Shown here piece after piece: positions 7,142-63,825 of a stretch of DNA of 64,000 nt (positions are counted from its first letter, which is position 1; the number at the start of each line of letters is the position of its first letter). A model generated the notes under the pieces. The model saw nothing but the letters and a program-made list of their open reading frames with translations, was not told the DNA's origin and did not search any database. The DNA comes from Bacteroidales bacterium (GTDB taxonomy: Bacteria; Bacteroidota; Bacteroidia; Bacteroidales; VadinHA17), in NCBI GenBank assembly GCA_963668715.1, contig OY764960.1, positions 3,255,423-3,319,422 of the forward strand, in the 5' to 3' direction. The position numbers and the translations under genes were made by a program.

Positions 7142-9504
7142 ATAACTTAAACCTGATAACTGGGAGTATTTTTTTGATACTGGTATTTCTATCCGCATCA
7201 TGTGGTTTTACAAAGACATCAGAAAGTAAATATGACGTAGGAATTAAAGTAGAACTTTATCACCCTGAGGAAGAAGACTCTTATTTGCTAATAAATGTAC
7301 GGTCGGGACCGGATGCAGTTTTCCCGGTTATGAGACAAATTAAACCCGGAACCACTTTTACCGCGATTGCCCGTGACGGACAGACCGGTTGGCTAAAGCT
7401 TGCTGAAGGGGGGTGGATCAGTGGAAGTATTGGTAGAGGTATTGTGGTCGGGGGAGATATTAAGACCTTACCAATCATTGACAATACACTGGAGATGGAA
7501 CTGCGGACTTTTGATACTGGGAGAGAAGCAGTAGTGCAGTATTTCAATACTTTGGAAGATAAAGGTTTGTTTAATGGTTGTGTTCTGTTTGAGAAGGACG
7601 GGGAAATAATTATTAACAGAGCGTTTGGATATGCAGACTTTGCAAATAAAGTTGCTCTGGACAGTAATTCACTGTTTGATATAGGATCCATTACAAAGAC
7701 ATTCACTGCAATGGGTATTATGATTCTGAAAGAAAGGGGAGAGATCAGCTACGAAGATAAACTGAGCCTCTTTTTTCCTGAATTTCCATCTTATGCGGAT
7801 GATATAACCATCAGACATTTGTTGACTCATACTTCAGGTATCCGGGATTACATCAATGAAATATCTTTGTTTAACAGGCAATTATTGACACATGAAAGTG
7901 TTCTTAATATTCTTCGGTCACAGGAAAGCCTCCATTGTCAGCCTGGCGAAAAATATGCATACTCAAACAGTGGCTATTGGCTTTTAGGGGCTATAATTGA
8001 AAAAGTTTCAAAGACTACGTATTCAGATTTCCTCAGGAAAAATATTCTCACTCCATTGAACATGAGTAACACCTATGTTATTGATGAACTTGATGCCTCA
8101 AATTCTAAACTTACGACAGGATTTCGTTTTGAAGATTTTATGGAGCAGCGGGTGGGGGACGACTCTTATTATTATACCGGTGGTGATGGTGGAATATTTT
8201 CCTGTTCCGAAGATTTGTATAAATGGCTCCGTTCTTTTGTTAATCCGAAATTAATAGCACAAAGCACATTAAATAAAGCACTTAATGTTAATAGTAAAGA
8301 CAGGATTCCTGGGTCACACAGGGGCTTCTCATGGAATATAGGAAAGAGAGGGGATCATTTATGGGTGTCTCATGGAGGGTATACTCAGTTCTTTATTAGT
8401 TGGATCGGTTTTGTTCCGGATAAAGAAATCAGATTGGTGTTGCTATCCAATAATGCCTCACCCTCCACCATTGACAAAATTATTGATAACATTGATGATA
8501 TTTACACCTCCAGATCATTCAGAGAGCCTGTTGGTCTTCTGTCAAATAAATTATTTAAAATGATTGTTGATGATGGTCCCGAAGGTCTAAAAGATAGTTA
8601 CCGGCAATTAAAGAAAAATGAAAGTGACGGTTACCATATTTCTGTCAGTATGTTTTTGCATGTTGCCAGGAATTTCTTCCTTGCAGGGAAGACCAACGAA
8701 GCATTCGCTGTATTGAATCTGGCTGAGAATGAATTTCCTGAATCATCTGAAGTTTACTATTATATTGGGCTCGCTTACAGCAGAACGGGAGATAAGGAAA
8801 AGGCAAGGTTAGCCCTGGAAAAGGCGCTCCAACTTGACCCTGACAACAAGGATACCAGACAGGAACTCAATGAAGAATCTGAGCCTGGTCAGTTCGTTAC
8901 CGATATCGACAGTAATATTTATCATACGGTGCATATTGGCGATCAGGTCTGGATGGCGGAGAACCTGAGAGTCCGAAGGCTAAATGATAGCTCTGAAATA
9001 CCTTTAATTATCAGCAATGATCAGTGGACCGGAATAGATAGTGTAGCATGCAGCATTTATGATAACGATGAAGATCATTGTGAGAAATACGGTGTGCTTT
9101 ATAACTGGTATACGGTGAATACGGGAAAACTATGTCCTGCGGGCTGGCATGTACCTTCAGATGAAGAATGGAATGATCTTGAGGAATATGCTGTTAATCA
9201 TGCAATTCATACTGATTCGAAGTACAGACCTGCTAATTCCGGGACAATACTCAAGTCAAAAGCAGGATGGCATTACGGCGGAAACGGCACTGATGATTTC
9301 GGTTTCAAGGCCTTGCCGGGAGGGGAGAGGCTCAAAGACGGCAGGTTTTTGCTTAGAGCTCAGAACGGCTTTTGGTGGAGCAGCACAGGTACTGATAAAA
9401 AACAGGCAATATACCGAAGCATGCTTTATCATGTAAATCATGTATATCGCGATAAACATCCAAAATCAGCAGGCTTCTCTGTAAGATGTATGAGAAATGA
9501 GTAA
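7138..9504 (+). CDS. multidomain secreted protein: SH3-like + beta-lactamase-fold serine hydrolase + TPR + C-terminal FISUMP (Fibrobacter succinogenes major paralogous) domain
   Basis: ATGA overlap with the preceding gene. Four domain signatures are visible: SH3b-like text (GQTGWLKLAEGGWISG), the SxxK motif (FDIGSITKTFTA), TPR text (YYIGLAYSRTGDKEKARLALEKALQLDP), and C-terminal FISUMP hallmarks (VWMAENLRV, YGVLYNWYTV, CPAGWHVPSDEEW, FWWSST, GFSVRCMRNE). Confidence 0.7.
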   Translation: MNNLNLITGSIFLILVFLSASCGFTKTSESKYDVGIKVELYHPEEEDSYLLINVRSGPDAVFPVMRQIKPGTTFTAIARDGQTGWLKLAEGGWISGSIGRGIVVGGDIKTLPIIDNTLEMELRTFDTGREAVVQYFNTLEDKGLFNGCVLFEKDGEIIINRAFGYADFANKVALDSNSLFDIGSITKTFTAMGIMILKERGEISYEDKLSLFFPEFPSYADDITIRHLLTHTSGIRDYINEISLFNRQLLTHESVLNILRSQESLHCQPGEKYAYSNSGYWLLGAIIEKVSKTTYSDFLRKNILTPLNMSNTYVIDELDASNSKLTTGFRFEDFMEQRVGDDSYYYTGGDGGIFSCSEDLYKWLRSFVNPKLIAQSTLNKALNVNSKDRIPGSHRGFSWNIGKRGDHLWVSHGGYTQFFISWIGFVPDKEIRLVLLSNNASPSTIDKIIDNIDDIYTSRSFREPVGLLSNKLFKMIVDDGPEGLKDSYRQLKKNESDGYHISVSMFLHVARNFFLAGKTNEAFAVLNLAENEFPESSEVYYYIGLAYSRTGDKEKARLALEKALQLDPDNKDTRQELNEESEPGQFVTDIDSNIYHTVHIGDQVWMAENLRVRRLNDSSEIPLIISNDQWTGIDSVACSIYDNDEDHCEKYGVLYNWYTVNTGKLCPAGWHVPSDEEWNDLEEYAVNHAIHTDSKYRPANSGTILKSKAGWHYGGNGTDDFGFKALPGGERLKDGRFLLRAQNGFWWSSTGTDKKQAIYRSMLYHVNHVYRDKHPKSAGFSVRCMRNE

Positions 9505-18250: not shown

Positions 18251-19744
18251 ATGTATCTGTTAGGCCTGGATATTGGTAGCTCATCCGTGAAAGCATCTCT
18301 GCTTGATGCTGAGACAGGTAGAAATATATCTTCCTGTTTTTATCCGAAAAAGGAGATGCCAATAAGATCTGAAAAGGCCGGCTTTTCCGAACAGGATCCG
18401 GAAATGTGGTGGAAGTATACCATAAAAGCTGTCAGAAAAACTATTAAACAGTCAGGTGTGTCACCGGAAGGGGTAGGGGCGGTAGGTATATCTTACCAGA
18501 TGCATGGATTGGTAATGGTCGATAGAAACCTTAATATTATTCGCCCCTCAATAATCTGGTGCGACAGCAGGGCGACAACAATAGGAGAGAGGGCTTTTAA
18601 TGATATTGGCAGGGGAAAATGCCTTGAACATCTGCTTAATTCTCCCGGCAATTTTACAGCTTCAAAACTGAAGTGGGTAAAGGATAACCAGCCTGACCTG
18701 TATGAAAGGGCTTACAGGATAATGCTTCCCGGTGATTATATAGGGATGAAAATCACAGGAGAGATAAGGACTACAATATCAGGCATGTCAGAAGGTGTTT
18801 TATGGGATTTCAAAAATAATGAAGCAGCTTCTTTTCTATTAGACTATTACGGGCTGGATAGCTCTCTTCTGCCTGAGATAGTGCCGGCATTTGCCGAACA
18901 GGGAGCAGTAACAAAAAAGGCTTCCGAATTGCTTGGGATACCCGAAGGTGTCCCCTTAGCTTACCGTGCCGGAGACCAGCCCAATAACGCATTCTCACTT
19001 AATGTGCTTAACCCGGGAGAGATAGCTGCTGTAGCCGGTACCTCCGGTGTCGTATATGGTGTCAGCGATGAGATACGATATGATCCTTTATCCCGTATCA
19101 ATACTTTCGCACATGTTAATCATAATAGCGATAAAACAAGACTCGGGGTTCTGTTATGCATTAACGGGACAGGGATATTAAACTCCTGGCTAAGGACAAA
19201 TATATCATGCGGCGGATCTTATGAAAAGATCAATAATGAAGCCGCATCGATAAGGACAGGATCGGACGGGTTGGTAGTGTTACCATTCGGGAACGGTGCT
19301 GAAAGAATGTTGGGTAATATAAACAAGGGGGCAGGGATATGCAATCTTGATCTCAATATTCATACATATAAACATATATTAAGGGCTGCACATGAAGGTA
19401 TCGCCTTCTCATTCAGGTATGGTATGGATATTATGAAGGAAACGGGGATTCACCCTGTAATAATAAGGGCTGGTTACGGAAATATGTTTCTGAGCAAAGT
19501 ATTCAGGGAGACGCTTTCCGGTATTTCGGGTGCAGTTATCGAATTATACAATACCGATGGAGCGCAGGGCGCCGCAAGGGCTGCAGGAATAGGGGCGGGT
19601 GTATATAAAAGCGATGCGGAAGCATTCCGCGGACTTGCTGTTGTTGACAGGATTGAACCTGATCGTTCCGGGCGGGAAGAATATGCTGCGGCATATGAAA
19701 AGTGGAAAAATGAATTAAATAAATATCTTAAAGAAAAAATATGA
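18251..19744 (+). CDS. xylB: xylulokinase (FGGY carbohydrate kinase)
   Basis: FGGY N-terminal text ([17 protein letters not shown]) and FGGY C-terminal text. It is translationally coupled (ATGA overlap) to xylose isomerase. Confidence 0.8.
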
Positions 19745-21072
19745 CAGTGATTAAAGGAGACAGAGAGTTTTTTCCGGGTATCGGGAAGATAAAATACGAG
19801 GGGCGCGAATCGGATAATCCCATGGCGTTTAAGTTTTATGATGAAAACAGGAAAGTAGGCGGCAAAACGCTCAGGGATATCATGAGATTTGCTGTAGCAT
19901 ACTGGCATACATTCTGCGGAACCGGTGATGATCCGTTCGGACAGGATACCAAAGTTTTTCCATGGGACAGACAAAAAGATATTTTAAAAAGAGCCAAAGA
20001 TAAGATGGATGCTGCATTTGAGTTTTTTACCAAGCTGGGCGTGCCATATTATTGTTTTCATGATACAGATCTTGCAGATGAAGCCGGTACTATAGCCGGC
20101 TATGAGAAAAATCTGCAAATAATGGTCGATTATGCAAAGCAGAAGCAGAAAGATTCCGGTGTAAAGCTTTTATGGGGGACTGCAAATGTTTTTGGCCATC
20201 CACGGTATATGAACGGGGCCGGTTCCAATCCTGATTTCAATGTTATTACCAGGGCAGGGACACAACTTATGAATGCCCTGAATGCTACGATAGAACTGGG
20301 AGGAGAAAATTATGTTTTCTGGGGAGGCCGTGAAGGATATATGTCTTTACTTAATACCGATATGAAGAGGGAACAGGAGCATATTGCCATACTTATGCAT
20401 ATGGCAAAAGACTATGCGCGGAAAAACGGTTTTAAGGGACCCTTCCTTATTGAGCCCAAACCTATGGAGCCGACAAAGCACCAGTATGATTATGACGCTG
20501 CTACAGTTGCAGGCTTTCTGAACAAATATGATCTTCAGGACGATTTCAAACTGAATATAGAAGTAAATCATGCTACTCTTGCAGGACATACATTCCAACA
20601 TGAACTACAGGTTGCTGCCGATAACGGAATGTTTGCAAGCATAGATGCCAACAGGGGGGATTACCAGAACGGATGGGATACAGACCAGTTTCCGGTTAAT
20701 ATTTACGAACTGGTTGAGGCAATGCTCGTAATAATTGAGGAAGGAGGATTTACAACAGGCGGAGTCAATTTTGACGCTAAAACAAGGCGTAACTCAACCG
20801 ACCTTGAAGATATATTTATAGCCCATATAGCAGGTATGGATGCATTTGCCAGGGCATATGAAACAGCATATGACATACTTGAAAAATCACCGTATAGAAA
20901 AATGCGTAAGGAAAGATATGCTTCCTTTGATACAGGCTGTGGCAGAGATTTTGAAAAATCCGGACTCAGCCTCGAAGACTTACGTGAACTGGCTGTTAAA
21001 AATGGCGAACCTGAACAGATTAGCGGCAAACAGGAACTGTATGAGGCGATCATAAATCAGTATATCAGATAA
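19741..21072 (+). CDS. xylA: xylose isomerase
   Basis: Diagnostic text is present: [59 protein letters not shown]. Confidence 0.92.
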
Positions 21073-21260
21073 CACAAGACAAAAGGCAAAAGACGAACGA
21101 CAAACGACAAAAGGAGGAAGGCGGGAAAAGAGTTGAGAGAAGTTTATGTGAGTTTATAAAGGGTTTAGAGTAAGTTTGTAAAAGTTTAGAATGGGTTTAG
21201 AATAGGTTTGATAGGGGTTATTTTACTTTGCTCTGTGCTCTGCGCTCTGCGCCCTGCCTG
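21071..21260. repeat. three abutting one-base-excluded low-complexity modules (T-free, C-free, A-free)
   Basis: 21071-21132 has no T (GACAAAA-type heptamers). 21123-21225 has no C (NNNNGTTTAG words at ~10-11 nt). 21226-21260 has no A (CTCTGCG heptamers). Confidence 0.9.
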
Positions 21261-21324
21261 ATGATTGGGAATATATGAATGAAATTTGCTTAAAATAAGT
21301 ATTTACTATTCAATAACTTAAAAC

Positions 21325-22188
21325 ATGAAGAAAACATTGATCATGTTATTATTAACACATTTTGCAATTTGCAGTTCATTTGGACAGTCAGGCCAGATTT
21401 TTGATAACCTGAGTATAAAAAGTGAAATTTTGAACTGTGAACGGAATTATTCAGTATATCTTCCACCTGACTATAATACATCACAAAGAAGTTATGCAGT
21501 ATTGTATCTTCTTCACGGAGCCTATGAGGATCATACGGGCTGGGTTCAGCATGGCGAGGTGCTGTATATTGCAGATAAGGCTATCAGGGAAGGTAAATGC
21601 ACTCCGATGATAATAGTCATGCCTGACGCTGAAACAGTAAGAAGGGGATATTTTAACCAGTTGGACGGAAACTGGCAATATGAGGATTTCTTCTTTAAGG
21701 AATTCATCCCGTATATTGAGTCAAAATACCGTATACGCGGCTCAAAAACATATCGTGCAGTTGCCGGTCTTTCCATGGGAGGGGGAGGAACATTCATGTA
21801 TGCACTTCATCATCCTGAGATGTTTTCATCAGCATGTCCCCTGAGTGCAGCTACAGGCGAGCTTACGTTTGACAGCTTTAAGGAAAGGTATGCCGAAGAA
21901 AGCAAAAAATATTCAGAATCTGTTCTGAAGGATTATTATGAGAAGCATAATGCCCTGTCGCTTATCGCGAATACTCCGAAAGAAAAAATTTCGTCGGTAC
22001 GCTGGTATATCGATTGTGGTGACGATGATTTTCTTTATGAAGGGAACTGTCTGGTTCATATAGCTATGCGGAAGAAAGAAATACCTCATGAATTCAGGGT
22101 GCGCGACGGTGCACACAGGTGGCCCTACTGGAGAGAAGCTCTTCCTGAAGTGCTGGAATTTGTGTCTATGGATTTTCACCAGTATTAG
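21325..22188 (+). CDS. secreted alpha/beta-hydrolase esterase (esterase D / putative-esterase family)
   Basis: Signal peptide present. It has YAVLYLLHG and the nucleophile elbow AGLSMGGGG. The location next to xylose genes suggests a xylan-associated esterase (inference). Confidence 0.65.
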   Translation: MKKTLIMLLLTHFAICSSFGQSGQIFDNLSIKSEILNCERNYSVYLPPDYNTSQRSYAVLYLLHGAYEDHTGWVQHGEVLYIADKAIREGKCTPMIIVMPDAETVRRGYFNQLDGNWQYEDFFFKEFIPYIESKYRIRGSKTYRAVAGLSMGGGGTFMYALHHPEMFSSACPLSAATGELTFDSFKERYAEESKKYSESVLKDYYEKHNALSLIANTPKEKISSVRWYIDCGDDDFLYEGNCLVHIAMRKKEIPHEFRVRDGAHRWPYWREALPEVLEFVSMDFHQY

Positions 22189-22229
22189 TAACCTGATTTA
22201 GTATTCAACATAAGGGAGAGGGATATTTT

Positions 22230-23576
22230 TTAAAACTCCAGAATAAACTGAGTCCTGATGTACGGTTCGGAGTTTACTCTTACTGAGCCGTTATGTTTAC
22301 TCATTATCTGCCTGACAACTGAAAGTCCTATACCTGATCCTTCCTTTCTTGTTGTGAAGAAAGGAATGAATATCTTATCTGTCAGATCAGGAGATATCCC
22401 TTTCCCGTTATCTGAAACGATAATGAATTTTTTGCCATTACTGCTTTCCCCGGCAGAAAGCTCTACTGTTGCACCGGGGATATCTTCAAGTGCATATATG
22501 GAATTTTGAACAAGGTTTATAAGAGCCTGGATGATTAGCTTTTCGTCCAGATTGATCTTCAAATCAGGCGGATTAATATCTGATATAACAAGGTTTATGT
22601 CTTTCTTTTGCCTGTCGGAAAGCAGATCGACCGTATCCTTAAATAAGACATCTACCGGTGTTTCACTTAAAACCGGCCCGGGGATCCTTGACAGCCTTTT
22701 ATATGATTCAACGAATTGAATAAGCCCCTTGCTACGTTTATCTATTGCACCAAGACCAGAAATCAGATCATTATACGTATCATTAGTCTTAAGACTTACA
22801 AAAGATCCGGATAACTTACCCGCGAGCCTGACGAGGGTTCCGCTGAGCGATTTTATAGGAGATACCGAATTTACTATCTCATGAGTAAGGACGCTTGTCA
22901 GGTTTTGCCATACCTTTATTTCTTCATCGCCCAGGACATTGCTTATGTCCTGAACAGATACCAGGTATATTTCACTGTTTCTTTTAATGAGTACTGTTTT
23001 ACGCGTTACAATACTTTTCATTTCGTTACGTATAACTGTCCTGAAGAGTGTGTCGGTATCGGGCTTAAGAGTATTTAAATGTCCGGAGAAACCATCGGCA
23101 AAACTGTCAAATCCCGTAATATTACTTACGTCGCCGGAACCAAGGATTTCCTTTGCAGAGCGGTTCACAAGATCAATTGCTCCTGAAGGCTCATACGACA
23201 GCAAACCTACGGATGCATTATCAAACAGGTATCTGAAATACAGATACTCTGACTCCCCGGAGGCTCTGATCTCATTTATTGAATTAATGATCTCCTTATA
23301 TTTTTCACCTAATATATCCCCTGATGATCTTTTCCCGGTAAAAACAGGAATAGTGAGATCAGGGTTCTTCAGGGTCAGGATAAAATTCATAAGATCCCTG
23401 TTGCTTCTGTTTACATATGAGGCAAATGATATTATGAATGTCAGCCATAAGAAAGCCGACGTGAACTTTGCTACTATGATATGGTCCTGCAATAAAGTCC
23501 ATATAAAGAGCATGCCCGATAATGCAATAAAGACTGAAAAAAGCAATACACGAAAAGTGAATTTATTGAATATCAT
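22230..23576 (-). CDS. sensor histidine kinase, two N-terminal TM helices with a minimal loop (intramembrane-type), PAS-like + HisKA + HATPase_c
   Basis: The TM pair is ...SGMLFIWTLL-QDH-IIVAKFTSAFLWLTFII.... The H-box is LTHEIVNSVSPI and the ATPase motifs are DNGKGI...GSGIGLS. It overlaps the upstream RR gene by 14 nt. Confidence 0.8.
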   Translation of the reverse strand: MIFNKFTFRVLLFSVFIALSGMLFIWTLLQDHIIVAKFTSAFLWLTFIISFASYVNRSNRDLMNFILTLKNPDLTIPVFTGKRSSGDILGEKYKEIINSINEIRASGESEYLYFRYLFDNASVGLLSYEPSGAIDLVNRSAKEILGSGDVSNITGFDSFADGFSGHLNTLKPDTDTLFRTVIRNEMKSIVTRKTVLIKRNSEIYLVSVQDISNVLGDEEIKVWQNLTSVLTHEIVNSVSPIKSLSGTLVRLAGKLSGSFVSLKTNDTYNDLISGLGAIDKRSKGLIQFVESYKRLSRIPGPVLSETPVDVLFKDTVDLLSDRQKKDINLVISDINPPDLKINLDEKLIIQALINLVQNSIYALEDIPGATVELSAGESSNGKKFIIVSDNGKGISPDLTDKIFIPFFTTRKEGSGIGLSVVRQIMSKHNGSVRVNSEPYIRTQFILEF

Positions 23577-33670: not shown

Positions 33671-36600
33671 TTACTTTTCATTGATTTTATTGCTGTTATT
33701 ATCAGAAAGTTGCATGAATATAAATTCCTTTTTGTCCTTTCTTTCTTTCTTTTTCTCTTCACGGTTTGATAAGGCGCCATACAATACAGGCACTACAATC
33801 AGGGTTATCATTGTTGATACTAATAGTCCGCCAACAACTACGATACCCATAGGCCTCCATAATTCAGAGCCATCTCCCTGGCTTAATACCATTGGAACCA
33901 TGGCAAGTATTGTGGTAATGGCTGTCATCAGTACAGGTCTTAAACGTGCCATACCGGATAGAGCGATCGCTTCGTTAAGTTTGTGTCCGCGGCTTCGCAT
34001 AAGATTGATATAATCGACAAGCACGATACCGTTTTTCACAACTATTCCTACAAGCATAATAGCACCGAGTGCCCCGATCATATCCAATGTGGTCCCGGTA
34101 ATAAAAAGGGCTAATATTACTCCGCTAAATGCGAAGGGGACAGACATCATAATGATAAACGGTTTTTTAAACGACTCAAACTGGGATGCCATTACGATAT
34201 ATACAAGTAAAATAATCATCAATGCCAGGGTACCCATGTCTCCGAATGTTTCCTGTTGATCTTCATAGTCGCCTGCCAAACGTATACTAACACCCTGAGG
34301 AATATCTATATCAGATATAGCACTTTCTATTTCCGTAGCCAGTTCCCCGAGTGAAGTGCGGTAAGGCATTGTTTTTACTGTTACAATACGCTGACGGCTT
34401 TTGCGTTCAATAGCAGGCAGCGACCAGAATTCATCCACTGATCCTACTTCACGTAGCTTTATTTCCTTTCCTGTTGCTGTCGGGATTGTCAGGTTTTCTA
34501 CCTCACTAATCGAATTTCTGTTTTCTTCCTTTATGCGGACGATAATAGGATATTCATCGCCTTCTTCTTTAAGATATCCTGCCATCATTCCGCTTACACG
34601 GTTTTGTACATAAGCAGATACTGATGCTGATGTCATACCCAGCATAGCCAGTTTTTCCTTATCGACTGATACCTTAAGCTCTGCCCTGTCCCTGTCGCGG
34701 CTTATCATAACATTACGTGCTCCTCCGACCTTATCCTTAATGGTATTCTGAATCGTCTCAGCCATTACACTTGTAGCATCAAAATCATAGCCGTAAATTT
34801 CAACGTCAACTGTAGAAATACCACCGCCGGGCCCCATCCCTGAAGGCTGTGCCTGGAAAGTGATTATTTCAGGATATTTCGCCATTTCCTGTCGTATTAC
34901 TTCTGCAATTTCAAGAATTGAACGTTCCCGCTCATATTTCTTACTACATACTATATTCATTTCTATTTTGTTGTTGGAGGTAGAAGAGAACATAGCTGCA
35001 ATACCTGCATCTTCTGTGGAGCCGGCTGTAGTGCTTAACATTCTTATCTCAGGTGCCAGTTCCATAAAACGGCTCTCCAGCCTGCGGGCGGTTTTTAGTG
35101 TTTCTTCAATTCGCATGCCTGTGTTAAGTTCAGCGCTTACAGATAACCGTCCACTGTCGCTTTGTTGCATAAAATCGGTTCCTATATAGCCCAGTATAAA
35201 CGGCAGCAAAGAAGCGACAAAGAATATCACTGCAATACTCATGGTGACAGCCTTATGATTGAGACAGAGTCTTAAAACATTGGCGTACCATTTATCAATT
35301 TTGTCCAGAAGAGCAACTATGCTTTTTTCATACCAGTTCTTTTTGGACCTTACTTCCACGAGATTACCTGATTCGTCGACCTTAATCTTTTTGGATTTTA
35401 ATAATTTGGAAGCCAGCATAGGGGTAAGAGAAATTGCCACTACTGTTGAGGTGCTTACAACAATAGCAACGATCCATCCTAATTCCTTAAACATAACGCC
35501 GGCCATACCTTTCAGAAAGGTAAGAGGTACAAACACTGCAACTATAACCAGGGTAGTGGCAATAACAGCAGTCCATACTTCATTGGTCGCGTATTTGGCC
35601 GCTTCACGGGGCGAAGATCCCCGTTCTACGTGCCTGGTGATATTTTCCAGAACGACAATGGCATCGTCCACCACCATTCCTATAGCCACAGTCAGCGAGC
35701 TAAGTGATATGATGTTCAGCGAACTGCCGGTAATCGCCAGGTAGATAAATGAAACGATCAGAGCAATAGGGATAGTAACGGCAATGATAAGGGTTGCCCG
35801 CCACCTGCCCAGGAAGAAAAGCACTACTATTACTACAAATAAAAGAGCATATAGAATGGAGTTTTGAAGGCTTTTGATAGAATTAACAATATTATCGGAT
35901 GAGTCATATATTACTTCAATATTGACGTCAGCGGGAAGAGTATTTTTAATCTTCTCCATTTCTTTTTTTACCTCACGGCAAATTTCTACCGAGTTGGCTC
36001 CTGATTGCTTTGAGATTACTATACGAACCCCGTCCTGCCCGTTTGTTTTTTCATCTAATGACAAGTCCTTTATTGTATCACGAACTGTAGCAATATCACG
36101 GAGAAAGACCTTTTGCCCGTCGGCAGTAGTGGCTACCACAAGGTCATTTAATTCAGAGCTTTCCTTAAATTCGGTGCGTGTCTGCAACTGGTATTGTTCC
36201 TTATCCATTTTAACTGTCCCTGAAGACAGGTTCAGGTTGTTATTGCTTATTACGCTCCCTACCGTTTCCAGAGGCAGATTGAAAGCGTCCAGTTTTTCCT
36301 GATCGAGGTCTACATAGATATAGCGTTCCGGTGATCCTGAAAGGGATATATTTCCTATCCCGTCTACACGGTTAAGCTCTGGAATAATCTCATTATTCAG
36401 CATTTTGTCAAGGCCTGCATAACTTTCCCTGGCAGTAACGGCATACTGAATGATAGGCATGGAGCTGGAACTGAGTTTAAAGATAATCGGGGTGGAGCAA
36501 CCACTTGGCAGGTTATCTTTGGTCATATCTATGAATGAGCGCACATCATTGGTTACTTCATCGATATTAATCCCCCATTCCATCTCCAGGGCAATGACTG

Positions 36601-42662: not shown

Positions 42663-42745
42663 CAGAACGGGGCCAGTCCCAGTCCCAGGATATCTTATTT
42701 TTTAATAACAGGCTTTGAAATATGTTTTATTAAAGAAAAAATATT

Positions 42746-52011: not shown

Positions 52012-52066
52012 ATTATGCCAGTTAAAGTTTTTATTTTGTTTTTGTAATTTGTTTTGTCAGGAGAGT

Positions 52067-52157
52067 GAAGTCAGAAGACGGAAGTAAAAAAAAATACAAT
52101 TATGACTCTACAGCTTCCGACTCCCGACTTCTTATTCCCGACCCCCGGCTTCTGATT
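52067..52157 (-). repeat. heptamer-built inverted repeat forming an intercistronic hairpin and encoding the C-terminal tail of the upstream ABC gene
   Basis: GAAGTCAGAAGACGGAAGT (52067-52085) is near-complementary to CTTCCGACTCCCGACTTC (52114-52131). The heptamers CTTCCGA CTCCCGA CTTCTTA TTCCCGA CCCCCGG CTTCTGA run across the stop codon at 52132-52134. Confidence 0.7.
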
Positions 52158-53898
52158 TTTTTCCAATTTTCCAACGGGATGCATCCATATGTAAATTCCA
52201 CATTTGTTTATACTGACCACCTGAGTCTATTAATCGTTCGTGAGTGCCGCTTTCCACAATTTTGCCTTTATTGATATACAGTATCTGGTTGGCATTTTTA
52301 ATGGTCGAAAGCCTGTGTGCAATAACAATCACGGTTTTATCTTTTAACAGGGCATTTAATGCCTTCTGGATTTTATCTTCGTTTTCGGTATCGGCATAAC
52401 TGGTTGCCTCGTCCAGCACTATTACGGGTGCATTTTTTGCCAGGGCCCGTGCAATAGCAATCCGTTGTTGTTCGCCGCCGCTCAGGTGAACGCCGGCCGG
52501 CCCGATGATGGTATGATAACCGTCAGGCAGCTTTCGGATAAACTCATCGGCCTGTGCCTGTCTGGCGGTTTCGACTACTTTTTCTTCTGAAATGGAAGTA
52601 TCGCCCATACGGATATTCTCAATCACCGTATCGTTGAACATAAAAATATCCTGGAACACAAAACTTATATGTCTCATCAGCACATCGCCCCTGATGGATT
52701 TGATGTTATACCCGCCAATGGTAATATTTCCGTCTGTAACATCCCAGAACCGGGGGATTAACCTCGCTACGGTTGTTTTTCCTGCTCCCGAGGGCCCGAC
52801 CAGTGCTGTAATGGTTCCTTGTTTTAATCTGAAGTTTACATCATCGAGCACACGGGTATTCCCATAGGCAAACGAAACGCGGTTGAATTCAATATCGTAA
52901 TTATCGAGATTTGTGATTGTGCCATTGTCGTCGATTTCTTTAGCGTCCATTACTTCCCGGAGTTCATCCACACCTTTGAAAATTTGTGTCAGATTCGAGC
53001 CGAAGCTTGTTAGTTGCTTCATAAAGCGGGTAAGCCCTATGCCGATGAACAGAAACATCAGGAAGGTGGATAACGTAATTTTTCCAACAGCATACATATA
53101 ACCGCCTACGGGAAGCAATGCCAACACCCCGCAGTCCATCAGCAGGGCATAAGTGGCAAAAAAAACGGCTGCTTTCCTGTTCATATTAATCCAGTACTGA
53201 CTGTATTTGTCGGCTTCATCCTTGTATTTCTTAAACGAGAATACCGACAGGTTAAAGGCTTTTATCACGGGCATGCCGCGGATAAAATCAATAATCGTAG
53301 TGTTCATATCCGATTTTATTTTAAAGAATGTACTAATGTTTTCCGCTTCGAGTTTTATCCGGAACCGTTGCAGCCCAACGCCCAGGAAGACAGGCATAAT
53401 ACTCAACAGGGCAAGCCAAAGGTTAAACGATGCCAGCCACGAAAAGATGATAACAGGCAGGAAAACAACCGATACCAAATCGACCAGATTATGAGCCACA
53501 AACTCTTCAATGGCTTCTATATTACCCATCATAATTTTTTTTATGGAGCCGGAACTGGTGTCGGAATAATAACCGAGAGGCAGTCTGGTAAGTTTTTTTG
53601 CAAGTGTCACACGCAGATCGAACAGGATGTTGTACGCAGCAATGTGCGACTGGGTCATTGCAATGCCCGAGAAAATCATCTGTCCGGCAATAAACAGGGC
53701 AGCGATTCCGCCGAGCATTAGCAGGTCGTCCATAATAAACGGAGGATGTATGATTTTTTCGATAATCAAATAGGTTATGTAATACGGCCCAAGCGAACAT
53801 ATCGAACTGAAAAAGATGAGTACACCGGCAATCCCCAAACGGTATTTTCCTTTTTTTGAGATATCTATCAGAAATTTTAATGATTTGTTTTTGATCAT
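52132..53898 (-). CDS. ABC transporter, fused TMD-NBD half transporter (exporter fold; YbtP/IrtA-like position)
   Basis: 6-TM N-domain. Walker A is GPSGAGKTT, the signature is LSGGEQQRIAIARA and Walker B is VIVLDEATSYAD. Confidence 0.85.
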   Translation of the reverse strand: MIKNKSLKFLIDISKKGKYRLGIAGVLIFFSSICSLGPYYITYLIIEKIIHPPFIMDDLLMLGGIAALFIAGQMIFSGIAMTQSHIAAYNILFDLRVTLAKKLTRLPLGYYSDTSSGSIKKIMMGNIEAIEEFVAHNLVDLVSVVFLPVIIFSWLASFNLWLALLSIMPVFLGVGLQRFRIKLEAENISTFFKIKSDMNTTIIDFIRGMPVIKAFNLSVFSFKKYKDEADKYSQYWINMNRKAAVFFATYALLMDCGVLALLPVGGYMYAVGKITLSTFLMFLFIGIGLTRFMKQLTSFGSNLTQIFKGVDELREVMDAKEIDDNGTITNLDNYDIEFNRVSFAYGNTRVLDDVNFRLKQGTITALVGPSGAGKTTVARLIPRFWDVTDGNITIGGYNIKSIRGDVLMRHISFVFQDIFMFNDTVIENIRMGDTSISEEKVVETARQAQADEFIRKLPDGYHTIIGPAGVHLSGGEQQRIAIARALAKNAPVIVLDEATSYADTENEDKIQKALNALLKDKTVIVIAHRLSTIKNANQILYINKGKIVESGTHERLIDSGGQYKQMWNLHMDASRWKIGKKSEAGGRE

Positions 53899-59740: not shown

Positions 59741-60530
59741 AGAGAAGTCTTTCTCCGGATCAGGAGATTGCTTCGCTTCGCTCAGCGATCTCCTTTGGGA
59801 GTGATTCAAAGAAAAAAGATCTTTCACCGGATCAGGAGATTGCTTCGCTTCGCTCAGCGATCTCCTTTGGGAGTGATTCAAAGAGAAAAGACCTTTCACC
59901 GGATCAGGAGATTGCTTCGCTTCGCTCAGCGATCTCCTTTGGGAGTGATTCAAAGAGAAAAGACCTTTCACCGGATCAGGAGATTGCTTCGCTTCGCTCA
60001 GCGATCTCCTTTGGGAGTGATTCAAAGAGAAAAGACCTTTCACCGGATCAGGAGATTGCTTCGCTTCGCTCAGCGATCTCCTTTGGGAGTGATTCAAAGA
60101 GAAAAGACCTTTCACCGGATCAGGAGATTGCTTCGCTTCGCTCAGCGATCTCCTTTGGGAGTGATTCAAAGAAAAAAGATCTTTCACCGGATCAGGAGAT
60201 TGCTTCGCTTCGCTCAGCGATCTCCTTTGGGAGTGATTCAAAGAAAAAAGATCTTTCACCGGATCAGGAGATTGCTTCGCTTCGCTCAGCGATCTCCTTT
60301 GGGAGTGATTCAAAGAGAAAAGACCTTTCACCGGATCAGGAGATTGCTTCGCTTCGCTCAGCGATCTCCTTTGGGAGTGATTCAAAAAGAAAAGACCTTT
60401 CACCGGATCAGGAGATTGCTTCGCTTCGCTCAGCGATCTCCTTTGGGAGTGATTCAAAGAGAAAAGATCTTTCACCGGATCAGGAGATTGCTTCGCTTCG
60501 CTCAGCGATCTCCTTTGGGAGTGATTCAAA
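59741..60530. repeat. tandem array of a 72-bp unit (~10.8 copies, near-identical), each unit containing a 9-bp-stem hairpin
   Basis: Unit starts are at 59755, 59827, 59899 ... 60475, spaced exactly 72 nt. The unit is CCGGATCAGGAGATTGCTTCGCTTCGCTCAGCGATCTCCTTTGGGAGTGATTCAAAGAGAAAAGACCTTTCA. GGAGATTGC / GCGATCTCC forms a stem with one G-U. Variation is confined to three positions in the A-rich tail. Confidence 0.95.
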
Positions 60531-60610
60531 CATAAAAAGCCTGTCATTCACTTCGTTCATTTACGGATTTTATTTTTATGTCACTTACAAAAACAAGTTT
60601 TTGACGCTCC

Positions 60611-60658: not shown

Positions 60659-60733
60659 TCGGGATGGGGAGATTTGAACTCCCGGCCCCTCGCCCCCCAG
60701 ACGAGTACTCTAACCGGACTGAGCTACATCCCG
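60659..60733 (-). tRNA. tRNA-Pro (anticodon GGG)
   Basis: Manual cloverleaf, 75 nt with no encoded CCA. Acceptor stem CGGGATG/CATCCCG, D stem GCTC/GAGT, anticodon stem CTCGT/GCGAG, anticodon loop CTGGGGG. Variable loop GGGCC, T arm GGGAG-TTCAAAT-CTCCC, discriminator A. Confidence 0.85.
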
Positions 60734-60790: not shown

Positions 60791-60846
60791 AAAAATAGTA
60801 AGAAAAGATAAAAGACAAAAGTAAAAAGATAAAAGAGAGCAGAGTG
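60791..60846. repeat. AAAGANA heptamer module upstream of tRNA-Pro
   Basis: AGTAAGA AAAGATA AAAGACA AAAGTAA AAAGATA AAAGAGA is the purine-rich equivalent of the TTTTGTC module. On the tRNA strand it ends in TATTTTTG, which fits a Bacteroidota -7 box. Confidence 0.7.
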
Positions 60847-63385: not shown

Positions 63386-63499
63386 AAAAACGTAAGTTGT
63401 TTATAATTATCTGCTTAACAATAAATAAGTAACATCAAATAATCCTGTTGTGTAATGAATCTGTACACATGTGTAGCTTTTTAATACTGGAATGATGGG

Positions 63500-63704
63500 C
63501 AGTCCGCAGTCCACAGTCAGCAGTCCGCAGTCCGCAGTCCACAGTCAGCAGTCCGCAGTCCGCAGTCCACAGTCCGCAGTCACAGTCCACAGTCACAGTC
63601 CACAGTCCGCAGTCCGCAGTCCACAGTCAGCAGTCCGCAGTCCGCAGTCCACAGTCCGCAGTCACAGTCCACAGTCACAGTCCACAGTCCGCAGTCCGCA
63701 GTCC
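63500..63704. repeat. array of ~29 NNCAGTC heptamers
   Basis: CAGTCCG / CAGTCCA / CAGTCAG words run uninterrupted for ~205 nt. The array ends in the 18-mer TCCACAATGTTAATTGGT, which also occurs at 11400-11417. Confidence 0.9.
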
Positions 63705-63788
63705 ACAATGTTAATTGGTGTATTAGTATATGAAAAGCTAAACGTTTTGTTAACTAATCAATTAAAAATTAATATTGCAGACAGAATT

Positions 63789-63825
63789 GACTGAAGACTG
63801 AGGACTGAAGACTGAGGACTTTTTT
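63789..63825. repeat. inverted short array of the same heptamer (GACTGAA/GACTGAG x4.5) followed by a T-run
   Basis: GACTGAAGACTGAGGACTGAAGACTGAGGACT is the reverse-complement type of the CAGTC heptamers 85 nt upstream. A hand-paired 13-nt segment (CAGUCCGCAGUCC with GGACUGAGGACUG) gives 12 of 13 pairs. Confidence 0.85.

Follow-up and report, generated by a model that had tools for sequence, protein, structure and literature searches.

Three abutting simple-sequence arrays, each lacking one base, between xylA and an esterase gene of a Bacteroidales bacterium

The gene xylA, encoding xylose isomerase, is followed on the same strand by an open reading frame (ORF) for an esterase-family protein in a 64,000-nt stretch of a Bacteroidales genome (positions 3,255,423 to 3,319,422 of contig OY764960.1, assembly GCA_963668715.1). 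This whole stretch is referred to below as the window, and all positions are given in its coordinates. The spacer that separates the two genes is occupied by three abutting, non-coding arrays of short words (190 nt in all, 21071–21260), in each of which one base is missing: a T-free module that begins at the xylA stop codon, a C-free module, and an A-free module that is followed by the last, non-repetitive part of the spacer (Table 1). The three runs had been pointed out in a preliminary description of this DNA, and the base counts given there were exact. The T-free run (62 nt; A34 G18 C10 T0) and the C-free run (103 nt; T37 A34 G32 C0) are the longest of their respective kinds in the window, and under the window composition the expected numbers of runs of such length are 2.7 × 10–6 and 4.5 × 10–6, respectively. 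The A-free run (35 nt; C14 T12 G9 A0) is the second-longest of its kind, the longest being one of 36 nt at 33725–33760, so that by itself it is ordinary.

The words that make up the modules were identified by direct reading. The T-free module contains, from position 21078 onwards, the heptamers GACAAAA GGCAAAA GACGAAC GACAAAC GACAAAA GGAGGAA, and the A-free module contains, from position 21231 onwards, the words CTCTGTG CTCTGCG CTCTGCG CCCTGCC. The C-free module includes seven GTTT(A/G) words with their first bases at 21142, 21152, 21163, 21174, 21184, 21195 and 21206, which corresponds to spacings of 10, 11, 11, 10, 11 and 11 nt (mean 10.7). Tandem Repeats Finder returned a period of 7 for the T-free module (21072–21113, 6 copies, 80%), of 11 for the C-free module (21163–21209, 4.4 copies, 72%) and of 7 for the A-free module (21230–21257, 4 copies, 90%). 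The words and periods first proposed are therefore the right ones, the heptamer period is indeed not a multiple of three (nor is that of the C-free module), and the tandem words bear out the earlier statement that this sequence is not the product of drift. Translation past the xylA TAA stop would append a 28-residue polybasic tail (HKTKGKRRTTNDKRRKAGKELREVYVSL; 21073–21159) that ends at the TAA at 21157; this frame is open because a T-free stretch cannot hold a stop codon. A coding origin of the modules was considered and rejected, given the periods of 7 and ~10.7 nt and the fact that the tail encoded by the post-stop frame shows no sign of use.

The absence of one base from each module had been read as a mark of 'constructed' sequence. 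This was an overstatement, because about half of all random heptamers lack a base, and arrays with short tandem units will largely produce such exclusion. A sample of 89 xylA loci from Bacteroidota, to which the window was added, contained 84 arrays of period 5–12; 64 of the 84 were intergenic, and 34 of these 64 lacked one base. Many of the arrays in this sample begin 0–10 nt past a stop codon, and those located after stops have more G than C in the sense strand more often than the reverse (17 versus 5). Whether the modules form a family had been put forward as a point to be checked. They do: arrays of like short-word style were present at no fewer than eight sites in the window, at many Bacteroidota loci and in metagenome contigs with a GC content of 33–69%.

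The relatives of the xylA locus were informative as to how such arrays arise. The nearest proteins to the xylA product were 83–86% identical to it, and an exact-sequence look-up retrieved no recorded protein identical to either xylA or the esterase. Two contigs obtained from different samples, L085 and L086, encode a single xylA protein, which shares 86% identity with that of the window. In either contig the genes xylB and xylA are separated by two arrays, one C-free and 103 nt long, the other G-free, (CAATCAAA)n, which stops 7 nt ahead of the xylA start codon. The xylB-xylA spacers of these two contigs are otherwise identical and differ by exactly one (CAATCAAA)n unit of 8 nt, which points to slippage. 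Array sites within the xylB-xylA operon of the closest relatives are found at L085:1608–1816, L086:75–275 and L333:2895–2995; in the window, xylB and xylA overlap by 4 nt. The sequence that follows xylA varies as well. In L081–83 there are two hairpins and then GCAGGGR, CAACAATT and CTAAAC words, while L084, which encodes the same protein as L081–83, diverges from them in nucleotide sequence at the start of the array. L330 carries (TGGAATWA)n directly after a TAG stop, L334 has (CTGGAATA)n at the xylA flank, and L331 has no array there. No specific word was kept between relatives at this position. Judging by these comparisons, the differing arrays found at the same xylA flank in relatives that are 83–86% identical are locally generated, slippage-prone arrays and not a conserved element.

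The modules belong to a known class of intergenic arrays, that of heptameric or long-unit simple sequence repeats, for which there is no accepted function. This assignment is well supported, because the units are in tandem, the site is intergenic and both halves of the orientation rule of Rehm et al. 2015 (PMC4692102) hold. These authors described G-rich heptamers, GGGAATC in Xanthomonas and GGGGAYT in Nostoc, ∼90% of which are intergenic and which lie ∼28 nt from the ORF on their 5′ side. When an array overlaps a stop codon or is located 0–50 nt from it, its G/purine-rich strand serves as the coding strand, whereas near the next start this strand is the non-coding one; the repeats are transcribed in Xanthomonas, occur in inverted pairs and differ in length and sequence between close relatives (PMC4692102). 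The term long-unit simple sequence repeats (LSSRs) comes from Mrazek et al. 2007, as cited in PMC4679880 and PMC4692102. The xylA-esterase modules resemble LSSRs and the Rehm heptamers in that they are intergenic, have tandem 7-nt units and include an array overlapping a stop codon. They also show the same polarity: a purine module lies at the stop, with its G/purine-rich strand as the coding strand, and a pyrimidine module, in the complementary orientation, lies towards the next start, 64 nt before it. They differ from the Rehm heptamers in that their units are not G-quadruplex formers, in that the host is Bacteroidales-like, and in that three unlike arrays lie end to end, the period of one being ∼10.7 nt.

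Heptamer arrays with the unit TAACTGA were reported by MacGregor 2015 (PMC4679880) in Beggiatoaceae, Cyanobacteria and five Bacteroidetes, the sets being mostly located a few nt upstream of start codons and in forward orientation; the Gramella and Aequorivita spacers with TAACTGA also hold other heptamer arrays, which are missing in close relatives. The modules under study are likewise intergenic heptamer arrays of a class present in Bacteroidetes, but no TAACTGA unit occurs in 21071–21260, and they start at a stop codon and not upstream of a start. A full-text literature search for the literal strings (GGCAAAA)2 and (GACAAAA)2 retrieved only unrelated primers. Heptanucleotide repeats of Calothrix/Nostoc, termed STRR and mentioned in PMC4692102, were reportedly described by Mazel and co-workers in 1990. 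The STRR units of heterocystous cyanobacteria are CCCCAGT, TTGGTCA and CAACAGT. The present modules share with them the intergenic tandem heptamers, with several unit types side by side, but neither GRCAAAA nor CTCTGYG is an STRR unit, and the host belongs to the Bacteroidota. The sole STRR1-like array noted in the window is (CAGTCCR)30, at 63499, the unit of which is one base off the (CCCCAGT)n unit of STRR1.

The orientation rule was analysed in a wider sample by scanning metagenomes for GRCAAAAGRCAAAAGRC, which gave at least 120 loci (L210–L329); all the values that follow for this sample apply among the matches listed. The contigs ranged in GC content from 33 to 69%, and the heptamers CAGCAGT, AATCCGC, CACTATT and GAGGCAG were found next to GRCAAAR arrays. 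The words GGCAAAA, CACTATT, CAGCAGT/CAGTCAG and AATCCGC were adjacent to one another in contigs of widely differing GC, and L210 bears a T-free run of 323 nt made of GACAAAA/GAACAAA units. When (GRCAAAR)n was located ≤60 nt after a stop codon, it was purine-sense in 35–38 cases and pyrimidine-sense in 6–7 (P about 3 × 10–6), a bias that was robust to the ORF length cut-off. A strongly complementary arm was present within the downstream 150 nt in 31 of 122 arrays, the two forming terminator-like (GGCAAAA)n-loop-(UUUUGCC)n pairs. In a count of pairs by their order, purine-first outnumbered pyrimidine-first by 20 to 1. Most arrays, including that of the xylA-esterase spacer, have no such arm, and these orphan arrays keep the purine-sense bias (26 versus 5). 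The bias was also seen in tandem intergenic regions (22 versus 8).

Folding of the RNA corresponding to 21060–21330 was weaker than that of 199 out of 200 dinucleotide shuffles (z = +2.06), indicating that the region is unstructured. When the T-free and A-free modules were treated as the two arms of a stem, they paired worse than 99.6% of shuffles (duplex z = +2.15); the remaining module pairs were unremarkable (z = +1.07 and –0.6), and the T-free array gave z = +0.37 against its downstream 150 nt. No terminator-like site was detected within 20500–22500. Rfam 15 at gathering score returned just a tRNA, at 60659, for the whole window, and matches within 20900–21450 were at chance level only (E > 1). 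A hairpin, a terminator or a cruciform was ruled out by these fold and duplex statistics. They also bear on the idea that the T-free and A-free modules are the worn arms of a terminator-type hairpin, (purine words)n-loop-(pyrimidine words)n, that has since decayed; (GGCAAAA)n...(TTTTGCC)n pairs of this kind are frequent behind stop codons. The paired arrays of the metagenome sample, with their marked purine-first order, and the hairpin-type members present elsewhere in the window speak for such an origin, and the chirality of the xylA-esterase modules is likewise purine-first and pyrimidine-last; nevertheless, the pairing values and the lack of a terminator-like site largely refute it for the present sequence, and we consider it very unlikely. 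Bidirectional intrinsic terminators, the REP/BIME elements of enterobacteria and the pneumococcal BOX elements are also found after stops, are purine/A-rich first and pyrimidine/U-rich last, and are modular with a variable number of modules. The location after a stop, the order of purines and pyrimidines and the modular build are shared by the array under study, but it has no complementarity, stem, U-tract or conserved dispersed sequence.

Taken together, the three modules are probably a mosaic of three simple-sequence arrays, independent of one another and in part decayed, that grew by slippage, whose orientation has been filtered by tolerance and whose words have no word-specific function. 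The slippage origin, like the class membership, is well supported by the comparisons described above. Slipped-strand mispairing would have expanded the arrays, with units of 7, ∼10.7 and 7 nt, within that portion of the xylA-esterase spacer which is dispensable, a growth zone bounded by the xylA stop codon on one side and by the sequence immediately before the next gene on the other. The seed word of each array would have been devoid of one base, hence the absence of that base from the module. Since there is no terminator between the xylA and esterase genes, the spacer is most likely transcribed, either as the 3′ untranslated region of xylA or as an intercistronic spacer. The orientation rule would act as a tolerance filter and not reflect a sequence-specific function: arrays would persist at those places, and in that orientation, in which the RNA remains free of structure and presents Rho with no C-rich site to land on. 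The long YC-free run of the sense strand and the C excess of the antisense strand (see below) fit such a filter, but they follow from the base exclusion itself.

Several observations weigh against this explanation. In L085, the G-free (CAATCAAA)n array that directly precedes xylA within an operon has a sense strand rich in C, which does not fit a simple anti-Rho filter. GTTTAG-type arrays from viral contigs showed no orientation bias (18 versus 29); the scan that retrieved them, for GTTTAG-N4-5-GTTTAG-N4-5-GTTT, yielded mainly plain (GTTTA)n pentamer repeats, which means that the GTTTAG word is not a specific family marker. No strain-level relative was found (the best xylA match being 86%), so slippage at the locus itself is deduced from its relatives, and the explanation relies on putative steps, namely that the spacer is transcribed, that transcripts continue into the esterase gene and that Rho may have a role. 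Finally, substitutions within arrays to the base absent from the consensus amounted to 11 of 83, versus 25.9 expected (P = 1.3 × 10–4, inherited changes being treated as independent), and direct reading of the C-free module revealed ∼30 differences among its nine units, none of them to C. A seed-word effect alone leaves this avoidance of the missing base unexplained; some constraint or mutational bias acts.

It is conceivable, if rather unlikely, that the three-letter composition of intergenic arrays, in Bacteroidota as in other phyla, is actively maintained, by selection or by transcription-driven mutation, and is not merely the heritage of the seed words. The arrays would then be strand-polar spacers, the sense RNA after the stop being unstructured and invisible to Rho and the antisense RNA providing a strong Rho-loading site. 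Rho-utilisation sites are C-rich, G-poor, unstructured segments of at least ∼80 nt with YC dimers. From 21066 onwards, the sense strand runs for 167 nt without a YC dinucleotide, which is the longest such run in the window, and there are 0 YC dimers in 21071–21225. The antisense strand of 21071–21225 has C45/G10 and 31 YC dimers, a composition in keeping with a Rho-utilisation site, and its C minus G value of +27 per 80 nt is the second highest in the window. These figures could be explained by a polar transcription insulator whose composition has been selected so that the sense RNA cannot load Rho and read-through into the esterase gene is preserved, while the antisense RNA, as a strong Rho-utilisation site, halts antisense transcription into xylA. 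The unstructured nature of the region and the class-wide trend towards G>C in sense after stops (also seen in PMC4692102) are consistent with this possibility. However, the composition figures follow automatically from the T-free/C-free property itself and are not independent evidence, no obvious antisense promoter lies nearby, and the C-rich, G-free sense array of L085 sits within the xylB-xylA operon; an insulator of this type is thus unlikely. If the composition is nonetheless maintained as described, heptamer-type repeats would be general, orientation-dependent insulators of transcription units.

The phased words might instead be bound, one after the other, by an abundant protein with affinity for single-stranded RNA or DNA, or by a nucleoid protein. 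S1, cold-shock and RRM-type proteins bind 6–7 nt per domain, which would agree with the 7-nt periodicity, the unstructured strand and the polarity of orientation relative to the genes. Nucleic-acid-binding proteins have been proposed as candidate partners of the TAACTGA repeats (PMC4679880). Against such a binding platform, the words are wholly different between relatives at the same locus and between modules, the copy number varies and there is no known partner, all of which makes it improbable.

The spacing of the GTTT words, at 10–11 nt over seven words, had led to the suggestion that the C-free module is intrinsically curved. With a wedge model, the mean predicted curvature was 16.7 degrees in this module and 9.6 over the window, and the module maximum was at the 98.4th percentile of the window. 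Of the mononucleotide-shuffled versions of the module, however, 24.5% reached its value, more than 15 other sites in the window scored higher, and a phased A6-tract control gave 39 degrees versus 23 for the module. The predicted curvature is thus not above that of shuffles, so that strong intrinsic curvature is not supported and the original suggestion is weak. Perfect Bacteroidetes –7 boxes (TAnnTTTG) are present in the spacer only at 21171 and 21203, both inside the C-free module, and direct reading showed that the spacers between TTTG/TTTA words and these boxes are of 14 or 24 nt. In the Bacteroidetes promoter consensus this spacing is of 19–21 nt. A promoter made up of GTTTAG words was rejected since the box spacing is off consensus; perfect boxes are, in any case, rare upstream of the window genes. 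An upstream promoter element for the esterase gene, in which GTTT words at ∼10.7 bp bend the DNA upstream of the promoter, could draw on the regular spacing, the curvature maximum and the two boxes, but it has to contend with the shuffles and the A6-tract control, with box spacers of the wrong length and with the fact that TTT followed by a TpA step makes a poor A-tract; there is little likelihood that it is correct. In the esterase-proximal spacer, GAAATTTG (21283–21290) has one mismatch to the –7 box TAnnTTTG and may be such a box.

Nothing at the xylA-esterase locus is new in kind, intergenic heptamer arrays having been documented before (PMC4679880, PMC4692102). Repeats of the heptamer type are plentiful between the genes of several phyla, and no function proposed for them has gained acceptance since their first description. 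What has been sharpened here is that the rule of the purine strand after the stop extends to (GRCAAAA)n in metagenome contigs of great diversity, arrays that lack a hairpin partner among them, that diverged copies shun the base missing from their unit, and that an IS110-family element has inserted precisely in a repeat word (see below). If the orientation rule reflects the avoidance of Rho or of RNA decay, the arrays would be cheap natural reporters of the features that render an untranslated stretch of bacterial RNA harmless.

Table 1. Position of the xylA-esterase modules, their flanking genes and the other arrays of the window
Feature	Position	Strand	Remarks
xylA (xylose isomerase) ORF	19741–21072	+	TAA stop at 21070–21072, within the T-free run; 83–86% identity to Bacteroidales xylose isomerases
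T-free module	21071–21132	+	84% purine; degenerate GRCRAAM heptamers at 21078–21119, then GGCGGGAAAAGAG; orphan type, no complementary arm
C-free module	21123–21225	+	~nine diverged units with GTTT(A/G) at each unit start; period 10–11 nt
A-free, pyrimidine-rich CTCTGYG heptamer module	21226–21260	+	5′ end of the purine-rich complement towards the esterase gene
AT-rich, non-repetitive spacer ahead of the esterase start	21261–21324	+	64 nt
Esterase-family ORF (PF00756)	21325–22188	+	Downstream of xylA, same strand
Array with unit TGTTTAAA	4566–4596		
Word arrays CAGTCGG, TTAATTGG/TTGATTAG and CACTATT	11205–11445	+	81-nt C-free run; 44-nt G-free run
Continuation of GTTTAR module beyond the IS insertion	11446–11470	–	
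IS110-family element (PF01548+PF02371)	~11471–12915	–	Splits the TAAAC/GTTTAG module; transposase at 11778–12833; boundaries approximate
Second composite with the word types of the xylA-esterase modules	12916–12990	–	Minus-strand order: CGACAAAAGAC...GGTCAACAAAAGG, then GTTTAAAAAGTTTAG
Short-word array	42670–42690		
Short-word array site	52027–52160		
Imperfect long hairpin, purine-word arm and pyrimidine-word arm	52056–52142	–	z = –3.9; overlaps the stop of ORF 52132–53898
Short-word array	60803–60836		
(CAGTCCR)x30, CACAATG-TTAATTGG linker, inverted (GACTGAR)x4.6	63499–63820	+	Hairpin-type member of the array class

Among the other arrays of the window, that at 63499–63704 pairs with 63789–63820 (duplex z = –7.0). 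The module types of the xylA-esterase spacer had been said to recur, in the same order and in opposite orientation, at 11321–11461 and 12925–12997. The word types and their order do recur, at 12916–12990 plus 11446–11470, but most of 11321–11461 is made up of other words. When the IS110 element is taken out, GACAAAAG-like words come first on the minus strand and GTTTAR words second, i.e. the order seen after xylA. ATCTAAAC flanks the element on both sides (11463–70 and 12908–15), the insertion lying exactly within the TAAAC/GTTTAG repeat word. The 3′ non-coding part of the element (11472–11777, minus strand) has a strong fold (z = –4.6) and holds CUAAACUC and GUUUAGAC, as a bridge-type guide RNA directed against the repeat word would be expected to do.

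The composite at 12990–11446 of the minus strand, with its word order, might be taken to mean that the xylA-esterase array was copied from a composite element, mobile or dispersed, similar to MITE, BIME or BOX elements. Fixed orders of modules do exist. Three composites of the form CACAATG-(TTAATTGG)n-TAGTAG..TTTAAAC are present in the window (11233–11338, 11390–11455 and ∼63700–63745), and the contig L010, from a Bacteroidales metagenome-assembled genome (MAG), contains within 8 kb, in both orientations, three copies of a composite in which (GGTTTGARAT)n, (CAACAAAT)n, CACAGATT words and GCAAATCCG words follow one another in fixed order (7367–7660, 13074–13385 and 14797–15008). However, a k-mer search revealed no 10-mer outside the repeat words that the xylA-esterase array shares with the rest of the window or with any examined locus, and there are neither inverted repeats, terminal or otherwise, nor target duplications. 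Since no non-repeat sequence is held in common, the array does not appear to be a copy of a dispersed element, and the chances of this origin are remote.

An assembly or chimeric artefact was also contemplated, since three MAG contigs (L003, L070 and L001) end within arrays of this type, showing that they trouble assemblers. The arrays are, however, imperfect and unique enough to assemble, the flanking ORFs are intact, and equivalent arrays are present in independent assemblies, two of which are identical bar one unit (L085/L086). An artefact is accordingly the least credible of the explanations considered and can practically be discounted.

The repeat arrays and the IS110 element of the 11–13 kb region sit between the two copies of a direct repeat of ∼185 nt (10927–11111 and 13051–13235), which are 76–92% identical and contain a conserved stem, GGATGGGAAAC...GTTTCCCATCC. 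This repeat had no Rfam match at gathering scores; its second copy is ∼125 nt upstream of a SusC-like gene at 13361. Elsewhere in the window, 59749–60537 consists of a 72-bp unit repeated 11 times with 98% identity, adjoining the tRNA gene at 60659–60733 (minus strand). The unit contains a hairpin, GGAGATTGCTTCGCTTCGCTCAGCGATCTCC, and a motif similar to it, GAGATTGCTTCGC...GCTCAGCGATCTC, is found downstream of xylA in the relatives L087–L089.

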